Virus genome (UHGV): UHGV-1653291 | DNA: 16,838 nucleotides | Strand: one strand, 5' to 3' | Source of the DNA: a virus | Shown: in pieces, positions 6,001-12,000 of the stretch | How positions within the stretch are numbered: position 1 is the first letter of the stretch | How the letters are laid out: each line of letters begins with the position of its first letter | Program-made: the position numbers

Positions 6001-9000
6001 CGAGCATTAAACCGTAACGATAACGAACAACGAGCCTCGGCAATTGCCGGGGCTTTTTTACATCCAGACAAAGGAGAACATGGGATGCCTTCGACAAGCA
6101 CCAAAAAAGAAATGGCGGTTAGTGATGTGCTTTACGCGCTTTCGACTATATGTGACGGAGCAATGATGAGGATGAAAGTCCTCCATGAAGCATACGGAAA
6201 AAGTCACGATGAGGCAGCTAAAGAGTGCCTGAATGAGATTGTGGACTTCATTGATAGCCATCGTTCAGTTATATCGCGTCAACCGACAGCGTCGTCCATC
6301 ACGATTAGCGCACCGGTTATCAATATATCAGTAACTGCGGCATGTAAATCAGCAGCGGAAGATGATCGTGCTTATGCCGAGTGATTTGTTCTGGTTTCCG
6401 CTTCCAATAAGAGATTTGTTGGTATTTCTAGCTGGCGCTTACGTCTGGAGAAAAGCGAAAGACACCTCGTTATCTTTGAGGTTTGTCTTAGCTATATCGG
6501 TAGGAACCGCGCTGGGGACGGCGTATCTCTTGACATTACTGGAGATATTCATTGAAGAATGGATAGTTTCATGAATGGTGTTGGCATTTTTCTGATGGTT
6601 GTGGCCGTGTGTTTTTGTATCTCGCTGGTGGTTATCGCTGGTGTCCTGTGGCGCATCTTAGTGGCGCAGAGGGCTTTTCGGCTTAAGCGGGAGCAAATGC
6701 GCCTTGATTTATATCGAAAGTAACTCTTACAGCCTCGCGGTGTCGCGGGGCTTTTTATTTTCAGGTGATGTTATGGAAAAGAAAGAAGATAAACCGATTG
6801 CCATTGGTGCAGAGTCTGTTCCGTTTAAGTTTGAATTATCCCAACTGGTAACAATGCGTATCAGTGAAGAGTGGGGAGAAGTTCAAGCCCGTGCTCAGTA
6901 TGCAAATGGCGAAAACCAGTATCTGATTCACTATCAGGCGGCTGATGGCCGTGCTTCCACAGAGTGGTTCGGTGAGTCGATGCTGATTGCGATGGAGGAT
7001 AAACGTCATCCTGGCTGCCCTGTTTTTGCCTGTATTGATTTGCCAGAAGGCGCGGTACTTGAAGACGACAAAGAAGAATGGTCGCCTGATGGCGAACTTG
7101 TCATTACCGGAATCGTGGATGGTAAGCCGGAATATTCCCGTATTGAGGTAAATAACGGCCACATCTGTTTGATCCCTGCGTAACGCATTACAGCAGCTCT
7201 TGTGCTAATCAGGGGCTGCGATAATGCGCAAACCAAAGCTGCCTCATTAACTCCTGCTCGCTGTGGAGTTAATGCTGGTGGCTTTTTTATTACTGGAAGG
7301 TGGGCGACCGCCGTCAGTTGCGACCTGACGACAGTCATTCATACCCACAGGGTGCCGTGGATACAAACCGAGGCCCACTTGCTTGCACAAGCGAGGGGAT
7401 TTTAGCGGATAAACGGCATGACAAAACATCTTAATGTGGTTTCTTTACCACTTTCTGTGTTGATTGGTTATGAAAAGAACGCTCGCACACACTCCGTGGA
7501 GCAGGTAGATCAGATTGTTGCCAGCATACAGGAGTACGGATGGACTAATCCGATCCTGATAGACGAGAACAACGTTGTAATTGCTGGTCATGGTCGAATT
7601 GCTGCGGCCACTCAGTTGGGGATGGATGATGTTCCCTGCATTGTTCTGGCTGGGCTAACGGAGAATCAGAAGAAGGCATATCGTCTGGCCGACAACCGTA
7701 TTCCGCTGAATGCTGGTTGGGATGAAGAGTTGTTAAGCGCGGAGCTTGCAGATCTTGCGGCCGATGATTTTGCTCTGGACTCAATTGGTTTTACTCAGCG
7801 CGAACTGGATAACTTATTGAGTGCGGCGGTCTACGATGACACAGAGGGTATGGATATCCCATTTGAGAAGGATGAGGCCAAATCAGGCGTAAAAGTTCAG
7901 TACCTGTCATTTGGAGGTCATAAAATCCCGGCAACGGATGAGGAAGCGGATCGTTTTGACTGCGCGGTGTCTCGTTATGTTGATGATAATGGCAGCTATA
8001 TCGGATTTGTATCCGCATTGCTGGCTGGGGAGGTGTGCTGATGCTTCACCTCAATTACGACATAACGCACCTACGCGGCGCGGAATATAACCCGCGTTTT
8101 ATCGGTGAGGATGATCTTGCGAGGCTGGCGGAAAGCGTCAGGGAGCTGGGGCTTGTGAAGCCATTGATAGTGCGCGGCGATTTGCTGGTGGCGGGACACC
8201 AAAGGACGAAGGCGCTACGTAAGTTGGGAATAACGCGTGCTGCGGTGTATGTGTTGCCCTGTGAAACGACGGTATACGACGAAGTACGGTTTAACCAACT
8301 GCATAACGGAACGGATTTTGATAGCGGAGATGAGCGTTGCAGGGTGTCCGGTCTGGAAGATAAGCATGGTTTTGTTCAGGTATCGGCAAGCCAGATCTCA
8401 GGCAATATGCGCGCGAAAATGGCATATGTTCGAAAGAACATAGCGGAACTGGTTATCAAGTATGGTCCGTGGGGTGGTTGTGTTGCTACTCAGTCTGGTG
8501 AGGTTATTCACTGTGCTCAGTATGCATTAGCAGCGAAAATGACGCGCACACCGCTAACGGTGTTTGTGATCCCTGATGTTGAGAAGGAAAAATACCAAAG
8601 TTATCTGAATAAAACTTATGGTGTATTTGAGTATTCTCATCTGGAGAAAACAACATACATCCAGACGTATGCGCAGCTTAAGCGGTTGCGTAATGGTGGC
8701 AGCCTGAAATCAAATCTGTATGAGTCGTTGATCCTCCCGATCATTGCCAAGACGCCAAGAGGAATTGATTTTGGTTCGGGGCAGGGAGACTACGCGCGAA
8801 TGCTCAGGGCAAAGGGATATAACCTGCATGATCTCGAGCTTTTCCGCCGTAAGGGCGCTGGAAACACTCTGGATAGGGCCGCAACAAACCGGATGATTGA
8901 TACGCTGGTGGACGACTTAAAAACGCGAGGGCGTTACGACTACGTGATTTGCGATAGCGTTTTGAACTCGGTCGATAGTGTCGAGGCTGAATGGTCCGTT

Positions 9001-12000
9001 CTGACGGTTCTGAAAGGCCTGTGTAAAGCTGGTGGGTCAATATTCTTTTCTGGCCGTAGCCGTGGAGAACTGGAAACAGTCCTGAAGCAAACACAAGCGG
9101 CGAGTTCCAAAAGCCGGCTTTATTTTATTGATCATGACGGTTTTACCGCGTTGTACCGGAAGGGGCACTGGTTTTACCAGAAGTTTCACTCTGATGAGGA
9201 AGTGAAGCAGTTGTGTCGTGTACATGGTTTCAGGATTAAGCGGTCAATATTCAACTGTAAGAGCTGGTATTTGCACGTCATTAACGATGATTCCCTTAGT
9301 TGGGCGAGTCTGGAGAAAGCTGTTCGTTTTGAGTTTGAGTTGCCGTTGCCTGGTGGTTCAACAATCGGACGATCTGATGATGTGCTGGCGGCTTTCCGGC
9401 CGTTGATTAAGTAGTGTGTAGGAGGCGCTGGTGGCTGACAGAATTGAGATAAAGATGGATTTTTCTTCTCAGGATATTCAACGACAACTCCAGCGCCTTG
9501 AAGAACGCGAATTGCCGTTCGCAATGGCGCTTGCGGCAACCAGAACGGCAAAGGCTTCTCAGGCTGCGATTAAGAATGAAATTAATCGGGTATTTGACAG
9601 GCCCACGCCGTGGATTCAGAACTCTACTTACGTTTTGGCCGCAAAGAAGAGTGATCCTACAGCCATTGTGTATGCTCGTGAATGGGGAGGAACGCCAGCC
9701 CCTGTAACGTTGACTCCGCAAATCGAAGGTGGCCAACGACAGTACAAACGCTCAGAAGGGGCGCTAAGGGCTGGTGGATATTTGCCTAACGGCTGGCAGA
9801 TTGCTCCTGGTCCCGGCGCAAAGCTGGACAAATACGGGAATATTTCGCGGGGGCAATTACAGCAGGTCTTATCTGGCCTAAGAGTTCAGCGAGATGCGCA
9901 TCAAAATCGCCGTCAGGGCAAGCCTACGGAGTTTTTTGTTGTTCGACCTGGTACAAGTAACCCGCTTCAACCAGGCGTCTGGCAGCGCGTTGGGCGGCGT
10001 CCTACGTTGATCCTTACGTTTATCCAGCAACCTAACTATTCGCAGCGTCTTGATTGGCATGGCGTGGCGCTGCGTGCTGGTGAGGATGCGTTTGCTGATG
10101 AAGTCACAAAGGCTATTGATGACATTCTTTCCAAGACCTTCTCTCGTTAATCATCGTGTGGTTGATGGTGTTGTTATGCAGAGTGTATTCACTGTGTTCT
10201 GTAGCGTCGCTCGCTGGCTGTCTGTGGGGGTGCACGAGCATCGTTTCATCGTCCGGCAGAATTGGGTCCTTCTGGACAAAAGCGTTGGATGCGGGTCATT
10301 CGAACCCCGATATTCGGCTAGCTAAACGTGAAAAAAGTTAGGTTAAAAGTTGCGGTAAAAGAAATTTACTCATCTCATTGAAAAATATCGGGAAAACGTG
10401 ATTTTTTCTGTATTTGTGCTGGTAAAAAGAAAGTGGAAAATTTTCTTTTAGATCATCAAGATACGCGCAGATCTTTAACCAATGTGATGTTGTTCTGATA
10501 AAAATCGTTATAAATCATGCAAATACATCCAATCTTTTAACCAAAACACCATCGCAAGATCCTTTTTACTTATAAAAACTTAATAAAATCAGATAATTAT
10601 GCTGGTTTGTGTGATTTTTCATGAGTAAAAAGATCGTCATTTTTCTCTTTTAGTATCAATAAGTTAAACAGTTTTCTTTAACCTGTTGTGTTATGGCGGT
10701 TAAAAAATGGCTCTAAAAATCGAATATTTACCAGTCGGTAAGTTGCTCAGATATGCCAAAAATTCACGGACTCATTCAGATGAGCAAGTTGAACAGTTGG
10801 TGAACAGTATCCGTGAGTTCGGTTTCACTAATCCTGTGCTGATCGATGAAAAGAATGAACTGATTGCGGGGCATGGGCGGCTTGCAGCAGCCGAAATTCT
10901 GGAAATGGATAAAGTTCCGGCGATTCGGTTGAGTAACCTTTCTGAAAAACAGAAGAAGGCTTACAGGATTGCAGATAACAAGCTGGCCTTAAATGCTGGC
11001 TGGGATATGCAGCTTCTGGCCGAAGAAGTCAAAGAGTTAATGGATGATGATTTTGATATTGATCTGCTTGGGTTTAATGATGCAGAGCTTGACGAAATGT
11101 TAAGCGATGAACAGCCGCAGGAAGAAGACGATAATTCTTCCCCTGTTGTTCAAATTAAGTACCTGGCTATTGATAAAGAACGTATTCCCGCGACGGATAT
11201 GGAAATTGCATTGTTGCTGGATGTTTATCGTCAGTACCACGACGCGCATGAAACGCATGAGGGATTTGTTCAGTATCTTGCTAATGGTTGCAAGTAATGG
11301 CCATCGTCAGTAAGTCAGAGTTTGCCCGCCGGAAAGGTATTTCTCCGGCAATGGTTACGAAGCTCTGTCGTTCCGGTCGCATTCCAGTGCTGAAAAGCGG
11401 CAAGCTGGATTTTGATAAAGCCAGTGCGGCTTATGAAGCGAGCCGACAGGTTGGTCGTGAGGTATCTGCTGAAAATGGAAAAAGAGGGCATGGGATATCT
11501 TCGGAACAACCAGAGTTACCCGCTGATGATGCCGGATTAGCTGGTGGTACTTCCGGTGTTGCGGTGCAATTCAACAAGGCTAAGACCGCAGAAAAAATTT
11601 ATCAGGCAAAGCTGAAACGCCTTGAATTTGAAGAAAAGGAAGGCTCTCTCATCGCTAAAGATGCGGTCAGGGATGATGCATTTCTGGCAGCTAATGAATT
11701 GCGTAGCCGCTTATTTAGTATTGCTCCAAGAGCAGCTCCCCGTTGTGAAGGCAAAACAGCCAGGGAGATCGAGCGCATTATTGAAGACGAGATTAATTTT
11801 GCGCTTCAGGCGCTCCAGGAATCCCGATTTATTAAGCAGGAAGAATAAACCTCATGGGCGAAACAGTATGGAGCACCGCTTTTTTCCGTGCGCTTCGCCC
11901 TAAATCACGGCTAACTGTTTCCGAATGGGCTGATAAGTATCGTCATGTAGCGCCGGGAACGTCTCCAAAGCCAGGGCCGTGGCGTACAAGCCGAGTGCCA

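Follow-up and report, generated by a model that had tools for sequence, protein, structure and literature searches.

From our analysis of the virus genome UHGV-1653291, a stretch of 16,838 nucleotides referred to here in its full length as the window, we found two plus-strand genes, ParB1 (7418..8041; 207 amino acids) and ParB2 (10707..11297; 196 amino acids), which, on the evidence of their sequences, are phage-specific stand-alone proteins with the ParB/Srx fold (also called the ParB-CTPase fold) of the family PHROG 620, are anciently duplicated, and are not partition proteins. The element in which they reside is a phage-plasmid of E. coli and Yersinia of 47-49 kb. ParB1 is the first gene of a cassette of a ParB with a conserved C-terminal domain (CTD) and a fused ParB-methyltransferase of the Methyltransf_23 class (PMT), and ParB2, which has the same CTD, is the first gene after the cohesive-end site (cos) and is coupled to the small terminase gene (terS). 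On a proposal that we regard as evenly poised, the paralogs would be nucleoside triphosphate (NTP)-binding partners of the PMT which act around the time of packaging, with ParB2 displaced to the cos/terS side. In essence, the two genes are part of a late-gene module of phages that is widespread, uncharacterised, and centred on a ParB-methyltransferase, and not of a plasmid-partition system.

The first-pass annotation, which was made from the sequence alone, had described these genes as two paralogous stand-alone ParB-domain genes with roughly 60% identity in the ParB-like domain. Both open reading frames (ORFs) are present at the coordinates given above and their paralogy is confirmed, with 96/201 identities by BLASTP (48%, E 5e-62) and full-length matches to PHROG 620 (residues 1-198 of ParB1 to profile positions 3-196 of 217, E 4e-74; residues 1-195 of ParB2 to positions 5-210 of 217, E 5e-75). 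PHROG 620 gathers stand-alone phage proteins under the label 'ParB-like partition protein'. By region, in ParB2 numbering, the identity is 60% over the ParB fold (1-96), which makes the initial estimate accurate, 58% over 1-132, 35% over 146-196, and 51% overall. The C-terminal block noticed at that stage as '(V/I)xYL...RIPATD' is seen in the alignments as (V/I)xYL...(R/K)IPATD...GFV in both copies, and it is kept in distant relatives, including a Bacteroides phage. The gene overlaps also hold: the ParB1 stop codon (TGA, 8039-8041) shares one base with the ATG of PMT (8041-8043) in a TGATG, on which the RefSeq/GenBank annotations agree, so that ParB1 indeed heads a ParB/ParB-methyltransferase pair, and the ParB2 stop codon (TAA, 11295-11297) shares one base with the ATG of terS (11297-11299) in a TAATG, which couples ParB2 to a packaging module of the lambda gpA type. 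The third ParB-like domain of the region forms the N-terminus of the 8041-9414 product; it shares only ~20% identity with each of the paralogs, to which hhalign relates it with a probability of 98.5%.

ParB_N was the sole Pfam domain found in the two proteins, with ParB2 scoring 33.7 bits, above the gathering threshold of 26.3, and ParB1 scoring 23.9 bits, below it. The AlphaFold2 (AF2) model of ParB2 (mean predicted local distance difference test score, pLDDT, of 91) comprises a ParB/Srx fold at residues 1-96, three short helices at 101-132, a disordered acidic linker at 133-150, and the CTD, which is confidently modelled in the monomer as a beta-hairpin (151-162) followed by two helices. Foldseek searches with the N-terminal ~140 residues of ParB2 returned ParBs bound to cytidine di- or triphosphate (CDP/CTP), Noc, PadC, and KorB as top matches, the best of which (7bnk, 6sdk, 7bm8, and 8qa8) have a template-modelling (TM) score of ~0.5 over ~140 columns. 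Across 67 homologs, the residues N19, R21, H23, G55-H56-G57-R58, D90-N91, and W99-D100 are invariant or nearly so; the paralogs thus carry an intact P-motif, which reads GHGR where canonical ParB has GERR, together with an intact DN motif, and R58 of ParB2 aligns with the second Arg of GERR. The CTD has the consensus xYLxFGxxKIPxTxxE...Y.D..G...GFV..LL, and both paralogs match the CTD profile (loci L099-L104). A ribbon-helix-helix identity of the CTD, which was suggested by the sequence pattern and a beta-alpha-alpha prediction, was rejected after hhalign against a ribbon-helix-helix profile gave 0.4% and Pfam scans were unsupportive.

An exhaustive homolog search on 50%-identity representatives with a cut-off of E ≤ 1e-3 gave 35,735 relatives, in which stand-alone proteins of 170-270 amino acids are mixed with fused proteins of 380-590 amino acids. 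The first 140 residues of both paralogs match the N-terminal module of phage fusions of ParB with DNA methyltransferases (PHROG 498, PADLOC MTase_II). An assignment to anti-phage defence was not retained, as PADLOC had matched only the N-terminal module of its type II methyltransferase model. Two of the relatives, P0124 (406 amino acids) and P0212 (435 amino acids), have two matched stretches, i.e., two tandem stand-alone ParB modules in one polypeptide, and, judged by sequence, each resembles a ParB pair that has become fused naturally. In genomes of the GTDB, the N-terminal ParB module is spread across bacterial phyla (Proteobacteria, Acidobacteriota, Verrucomicrobiota, Chloroflexota, Patescibacteria, and Actinobacteria).

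The partner of ParB1, the PMT (8041..9414, plus strand; 457 amino acids; alternative GTG start at 8035), matches the Pfam families Methyltransf_23 (E 1.3e-7) and ParB_N (E 3.2e-5) and, at E 3e-264, PHROG 5475, whose function is unknown. Its layout in the AF2 model (pLDDT 93, predicted TM score 0.89) is a ParB/Srx fold with an AGHQR motif, followed by a putative degenerate ParB-like fold (~105-190) and then a class I S-adenosylmethionine (SAM) methyltransferase. In the middle part (~105-190), the secondary-structure pattern of the ParB fold repeats without the P-motif, and in hhalign alignments with ParB folds this part stays in register, though at a probability of only 7%, which is suggestive of an internal second ParB-like fold. 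The nearest relative of the methyltransferase domain (protein residues ~233-400) by sequence is UbiG, and by structure it is nearest to small-molecule, sugar, and tRNA class I methyltransferases. The 'MTase' of the first-pass annotation is thus a UbiG-like class I SAM enzyme and not a recognisable DNA amino-methyltransferase.

We then searched viral contigs with the ParB-Methyltransf_23 profile and collected 80 PMT loci of 35-100% identity. In ~75/80 of them, the gene directly before the PMT encodes a stand-alone ParB with the CTD and usually overlaps the PMT start; this is essentially every locus in which upstream DNA is present, four of the others being cut at the contig start. The same pair was met in independent look-ups of marine contigs, of the Bacteroides phage BS-TP3 (order ParB-PMT-terS-terL), and of a chromosomal lambdoid prophage of Serratia aquatilis (order Q, lysis genes, ParB, PMT, Terminase_2, Terminase_6). 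Conversely, among 50,697 phage records, clear CTD matches are confined to records which also encode a PMT, and the only other match, which is weak, is to ParB2 itself and comes from a partial record (20.6 kb) of this phage. The CTD-type ParB and the PMT are thus a strict two-gene late-region cassette, which in other phages stands behind Q and the lysis genes, usually at the lysis/terminase boundary and directly ahead of the terminase genes, irrespective of the family to which the terminase belongs. ParB1 overlaps and lies directly upstream of the ParB-Methyltransf_23 gene as in these cassettes, whereas ParB2 is followed by terS, and ParB2 is the displaced duplicate. In the window, none of the small ORFs that precede ParB1 has a Pfam match; in divergent relatives, a gene of the Acb2/Tad1-hairpin family (anti-CBASS/anti-Thoeris sponge) is found shortly upstream of ParB1 (490-774 in locus L088 and 4230-4508 in L090).

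Several known systems share parts of this arrangement. Fusions of ParB_N with N6_N4 methyltransferases (e.g., the prophage ParB-MTase of B. cereus ATCC 10987; PHROG 498; PADLOC MTase_II) have the same N-terminal module of ~140 residues at 50-60% identity (E 1e-50 to PHROG 498 and 1e-37 to 1e-40 to PADLOC MTase_II) and share the genomic position of ParB2, as they directly precede terS/terL and often open the genome. Unlike these fusions, the paralogs have no methyltransferase domain in the polypeptide and carry the 45-residue CTD in its place, and their partner methyltransferase is a separate gene of another class (Methyltransf_23, UbiG-like) with its own divergent ParB fold. In viral contigs, the ORF that follows the fused ParB-methyltransferases is very often TerS (PHROGs 57, 1482, 309, and 83), TerL, portal, or an HNH endonuclease, and many of the fused genes are within 50-250 bp of the contig start; the gene next to stand-alone ParBs shorter than 270 amino acids is mostly a modification enzyme (Mom-like, DNA methyltransferases, glucosyltransferase). 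A stand-alone ParB followed by terS, terL (gpA), DUF6148, and portal at the left end of the genome was found in the Vibrio phages X29 and R20L and in contig L091, with a divergent C-terminus in the X29 protein. Hence, ParB-fold genes directly upstream of terS are a general phage pattern. Lambdoid prophages of E. coli (L011, L014-L016, and L086; 20903-22619 in vB_EcoS-666R9) have, in the stretch from the lysis genes/trkG to terS, a gene for a 262-residue ParB-module protein that overlaps a gene for a 310-residue 'Mom-like' protein (PHROG 1384), which is another split pair of ParB and modification enzyme at the same genomic position.

The position of ParB1 and ParB2 relative to the virion ends was estimated from record ends and a conserved box. 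The box, of the form TTGGGTCC ... GCGGGTCATTCGAACCCCG ... TTCGGCTAGCT (10262..10323, plus strand), is conserved as TTGGGTCC...GCGGGTCATTCGAACCCCG...CTAGCT in all relatives carrying ParB2. The record of Yersinia phage vB_YpM_44 ends at window position 10305 and restarts at 10306, the records of vB_YpM_41 and vB_YpM_39 end at 10293, and the records of Vibrio phage R20L and of the unrelated metagenomic contig L091 start at the homologous GGTG...ACCCCG position. The 12-base offset between 10293 and 10305 suggests that GGTCATTCGAAC (10294-10305) is probably a 12-nt cohesive end, and we accordingly put the inferred left end of the virion DNA at 10294. It follows that ParB1, PMT, and a further gene, gene X, would be the last genes, at the right end, and ParB2, terS, and terL the first, at the left end. 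The paralogs had been described as bracketing a module; they are better put as flanking the inferred cos, with ParB1 on the side of the right virion end and ParB2 on that of the left. Gene X (9431..10150, plus strand; 239 amino acids), the last gene before cos, is labelled 'minor tail protein' in PHROG 1924, has no Pfam or NCBIfam match, and is conserved in this phage lineage only, with a ratio of non-synonymous to synonymous substitution rates (dN/dS) of 0.07-0.17. The cluster of tail genes lies a long way from it. Beyond ParB2, terS (11297..11848, plus strand; 183 amino acids) encodes a small terminase subunit with an N-terminal helix-turn-helix (HTH) (PHROG 57, E 1.4e-41) and terL (11854..13710, plus strand) a large subunit of the lambda gpA type (Pfam GpA_ATPase E 9e-76, GpA_nuclease E 1e-84).

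The duplication was traced through the relatives. A second CTD-type copy before terS is limited to the lineage of the window (L099, L101, L102, L104, L088, and L090), and in the unrelated locus L126, a second CTD-type copy lies 3.6 kb upstream of its cassette. The block ParB1-PMT-X-cos-ParB2-terS-terL is intact in L088 and L090 despite an identity of only 57-67% of their ParB2 to the window copy. Orthologs (56-59% for ParB1 in L088 and L090, 57-67% for ParB2) are closer than paralogs (42-50%), and therefore the duplication predates the separation of the L088, L090, and window lineages; overall, ParB2 orthologs are 57-85% identical. The dN/dS is ~0.05 for both genes, with synonymous sites near saturation, and the paralogs are genuine, old, and selectively maintained. 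This bears on the notion that ParB2 is a redundant leftover, dating either from the duplication or from a former ParB-methyltransferase whose methyltransferase domain was lost, and that its place before terS is only historical. The gene before terS is a ParB-methyltransferase fusion in most phages, and the N-terminal module of ParB2 is as close to the fusions (51-56%) as to ParB1 (48%), as such a descent would have it; nevertheless, the strong purifying selection, the invariant motif residues, and the tight linkage of ParB2 to terS across divergent relatives make a leftover highly improbable. The first-pass annotation had called a duplication within such a distance unusual. This is borne out among phages, where ~20 of the 402 records with a homolog (~5%) have one in two places, and not among bacteria, where 17 of the 77 loci (L179-L258, GTDB genomes) have adjacent ParB-module gene pairs, mostly of overlapping ParB-methyltransferase fusions. 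The frequency of paired genes in these bacterial loci is consistent with ParB folds acting in pairs.

Starting from homology, architecture, synteny, purifying selection, and the position of cos, the reading that we prefer takes ParB1 as the founding copy, which would be the obligate partner of the translationally coupled PMT downstream. Many unrelated tailed phages and prophages carry the cassette in the late operon, usually between the lysis and terminase genes. In one lineage, which has contractile tails and heads of the lambda type and to which this phage-plasmid belongs, the first gene was duplicated, giving a ParB2 placed after cosN and coupled to terS. By analogy with the nucleotide-driven engagement of N-domains in ParB dimers, the ParB folds may bind NTP and may heterodimerise with the ParB fold of the PMT; in such a complex, the ParB proteins and the PMT would associate with replicated phage DNA, their presumed substrate, and act on it late in infection, near the time of packaging. 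ParB2 keeps the CTD, so it would probably still work with the PMT, and its location would allow it to act together with terS on DNA close to cos, possibly in a form specialised for cos.

Parts of this proposal agree with published work. The phage ParB-CTPase-fold proteins surveyed in doi 10.1101/2025.10.10.680097 are of the same class as the paralogs. The survey describes short stand-alone ParB-fold proteins as dominant in phages and Methyltransf_23 and N6_N4 fusions as enriched in phages and prophages, and it reports that ParB-fold fusions to SAM-dependent methyltransferases bind adenosine triphosphate and that the NTP specificity of ParB folds is not predictable from sequence (doi 10.1101/2025.10.10.680097). 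The text searched contains no cassette of a CTD-type ParB and PMT, no CTD, no link to terminase or cos (the word 'terminase' occurs 0 times), and no duplication. Literature searches for a functional link between ParB and terminase found no experimental study.

Four points weigh against the proposed partnership. The paralogs have GHGR and not GERR and do not have the Arg of ENxxR, which makes clamp-like behaviour uncertain. The CTD of 45 residues has no Pfam model, and no Pfam family recurs among 30 CTDs at E values up to 10. The top 50 Foldseek matches of the PMT include no DNA methyltransferase and no DPPY- or PCQ-type motif was found on reading its sequence; the enzyme resembles small-molecule and tRNA methyltransferases, and DNA may therefore not be its substrate. 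Finally, ParB-terS-terL is retained in X29 and R20L, two Vibrio phages that have no PMT, so that a terS-linked function independent of the PMT exists, at least on that branch.

The last point leads to the DNA between cosN and ParB2, an AT-rich array (10341..10706) in which nine sites of the GGT(T)AAAAG type, some on each strand, are found at 10341, 10354, 10421, 10472, 10534, 10562, 10624, 10675, and 10698. All five occurrences of GGTTAAAR in the window fall inside the 365 bp of the array, while 1.6 would be expected across the whole 16.8-kb window. From its sequence and location, the array is a candidate cosB or a putative ParB2-binding array. In vB_YpM_44, 90 bp of it (window 10434-10523) are missing. 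Relatives have arrays of other motifs, with nine copies of GGTTAACAA in 480 bp in L090/L104 (10289-10768 in L104), eight copies of GTTAACAA in L088 (3686-4018), and five or six copies of GTTAACAC in X29 and R20L; a site array lies in the first 150 bases of L084/L085. The recognition helix of TerS varies with the motif, being SPAM with GGTTAAAAG and SR(P/A)A with GGTTAACAA, and this change in step favours TerS as the putative binder of the array. More distant phages which have the cassette and a related TerS without ParB2, and whose cos position is not located, show no array in the gap between PMT and terS, on which account ParB2 may also be the binder. A site array of another kind occurs in L123, a phage with a single ParB copy, on the other side of cos: four palindromes (GGCAAATTTTGCC, GGTCAWTTTTGACC) in positions 1-130, immediately left of a cos-like box, followed by ParB(CTD), PMT, and, further on, TerL.

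ParB-fold genes upstream of terS are general and ParB2 follows cos and the array, and because of this, the participation in DNA recognition or cleavage at packaging which the first-pass annotation had proposed is plausible on this genomic evidence. Conceivably, ParB2 could be a packaging accessory independent of the PMT, which would bind the array in a parS-like manner and help TerS/TerL at cosB or nick cos (cf. IHF/Nu1 in lambda or the HNH proteins of HK97-like phages). The place of ParB2 as the first gene after cos and its overlap with terS would suit such a protein, as would the crowding of nine motif copies beside it with almost none elsewhere in the window, the array variants that accompany every ParB2-type gene examined (L088, L090/L104, X29, and R20L), the array-free gap in the distant phages that lack ParB2 and have a related TerS and the cassette, and the retention of ParB-terS-terL in X29-type phages. 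A ParB-methyltransferase beside terS in a B. cereus prophage has been reported to have non-specific nicking activity (PMC3592412; PMC5512222); along with Osa, it counts among the ParB-fold nickases/nucleases, which have metal-dependent nicking or DNase activity. A small accessory gene at cos/terminase is likewise known from HK97-like cos phages, in which an HNH endonuclease of the gp74 type lies by terS (PMC3592412). Unlike the latter, the paralogs have an unrelated fold and no HNH motif, and their terminase is of the gpA type with its own nuclease domain; lambda, too, requires no extra nuclease. As the TerS helix tracks the motif, TerS is an equally good or better candidate for the binder, ParB2 has no HTH and a CTD without detectable similarity to known DNA-binding domains, and it retains this CTD, which otherwise strictly co-occurs with the PMT. 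On balance, we consider a PMT-independent accessory fairly unlikely. A bolder form, which strikes us as quite unlikely, makes ParB2 an NTP-gated packaging loader on the parS-like array of about nine sites: it would organise cosB for TerS and TerL (gpA), or it would use paired ParB folds or the shared CTD to anchor the PMT on the end of the DNA that is first to be packaged, and ParB1 would be its equivalent away from cos. If this were true, modification and packaging would be coupled.

The array and the gene order also recall regulators of the DndB or KorB type, in that the paralogs could be NTP-dependent transcriptional regulators which control the modification gene and the late packaging operon. 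Regulators with a ParB fold are known in DndB and KorB, and Foldseek returned KorB for ParB2; furthermore, each paralog heads its coupled gene pair, and the site array is upstream of ParB2. Such a role is nonetheless improbable in view of the absence of a recognisable DNA-binding domain, of promoter-like sites in either upstream region, and of a repeat array upstream of ParB1; moreover, the strict one-base overlap and the strict co-occurrence with the PMT across phyla are more typical of stoichiometric partners. A scan from gene X to ParB2 found no sigma-70-like promoter and no terminator, and late transcription in the style of lambda, reading across cos, might tentatively fit this region.

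The remaining question is whether one or both paralogs could be centromere-binding partition proteins (ParB-parS) that stabilise the prophage of a phage-plasmid. At 99.4-99.9% identity, the window matches Escherichia phage vB_EcoM-613R2 and Yersinia phages vB_YpM_39/41/44, and many circular E. coli plasmids of 47-49 kb, one of them from ATCC 25922, are equally close to it, which bears out the earlier suspicion of a phage-plasmid. The element replicates as a plasmid of this size with an IncFII-type RepA, the array beside ParB2 is superficially centromere-like, and the depositors' label is 'chromosome (plasmid) partitioning protein ParB', all of which would agree with partition. However, the complete copy NZ_LR130559, which encodes RepA, a HigBA toxin-antitoxin pair, and a cI-like repressor, has a ParA gene followed by an 82-residue gene ~16 kb away from the ParB1/ParB2 region, as a separate module, and no parA is adjacent to the paralogs or present in the window at all. 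The ParB-CTPase fold and the P-motif Arg are shared with the canonical CTP-dependent clamps ParB/Spo0J/Noc/KorB, whereas the parS-binding HTH domain and the C-terminal dimerisation domain are absent (Pfam, AF2), as is the ParA motif; the fold begins at residue 3-5 and leaves no room for an N-terminal ParA-binding LG(K/R)GL motif. The TIGR00180 scores of 29.8 and 40.1 are below the cut-off of 58.45. Besides, the same genes and arrangements occur in the chromosomal Serratia prophage, in the Bacteroides phage, and in the Vibrio phages, the records of the isolates have no plasmid features, and the genes are in a late operon without a promoter-like site upstream. The depositors of vB_EcoM-613R2 had themselves noted a ParB without ParA and cautioned that no plasmid stage was implied (doi 10.1101/2022.06.29.498070). 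The adapted plasmid-partition role that was initially entertained is thus not borne out; given the architecture, the missing neighbouring parA, the separate ParA module, and the presence in chromosomal prophages, we rejected it as extremely improbable.

As for the rest of the element, the head genes are lambda-like (gpA terminase, a portal of the lambda family, and a ClpP-type protease by Pfam) and the tail genes are myovirus-like. An IncFII-family RepA (2291-3271) and a HigB/HigA-like toxin-antitoxin pair (4728-5380) are located directly behind the tail-fibre and tail-fibre-assembly genes (12-1927). About 16 kb of the complete 47-49 kb plasmids are missing from the window, including lysis genes, the cI-like repressor, ParA and the 82-residue protein, an MT-A70 methyltransferase, and a tRNA, and a junction at ~5422-5547 joins the HigBA region straight to the DNA upstream of ParB1. 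This junction was spanned by no plasmid record searched and by no complete E. coli genome record, and the window could have arisen by deletion or could reflect an assembly that collapsed across a ~125-bp repeat.

ParB-CTPase-fold proteins with functions beyond the segregation of chromosomes and plasmids are an active open area, in which the stand-alone and methyltransferase-fused forms of phages are abundant and without an assigned biological role. The phage-plasmid described here offers a tractable E. coli system, as it is present in ATCC 25922 and many clinical isolates and related phages grow on Yersinia, and one late operon holds the strictly conserved ParB(CTD)/PMT pair, a diverged copy wired to terS, and an inferred cos with an adjacent array. 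The analysis also corrects the common misannotation 'plasmid partitioning protein ParB', which can make ordinary prophages look like phage-plasmids. Learning the binding partners of these proteins and the substrate of methylation would give a function to a family of tens of thousands of members, and would also test whether nucleotide switches of the ParB type have been recruited to the modification or packaging of phage DNA.

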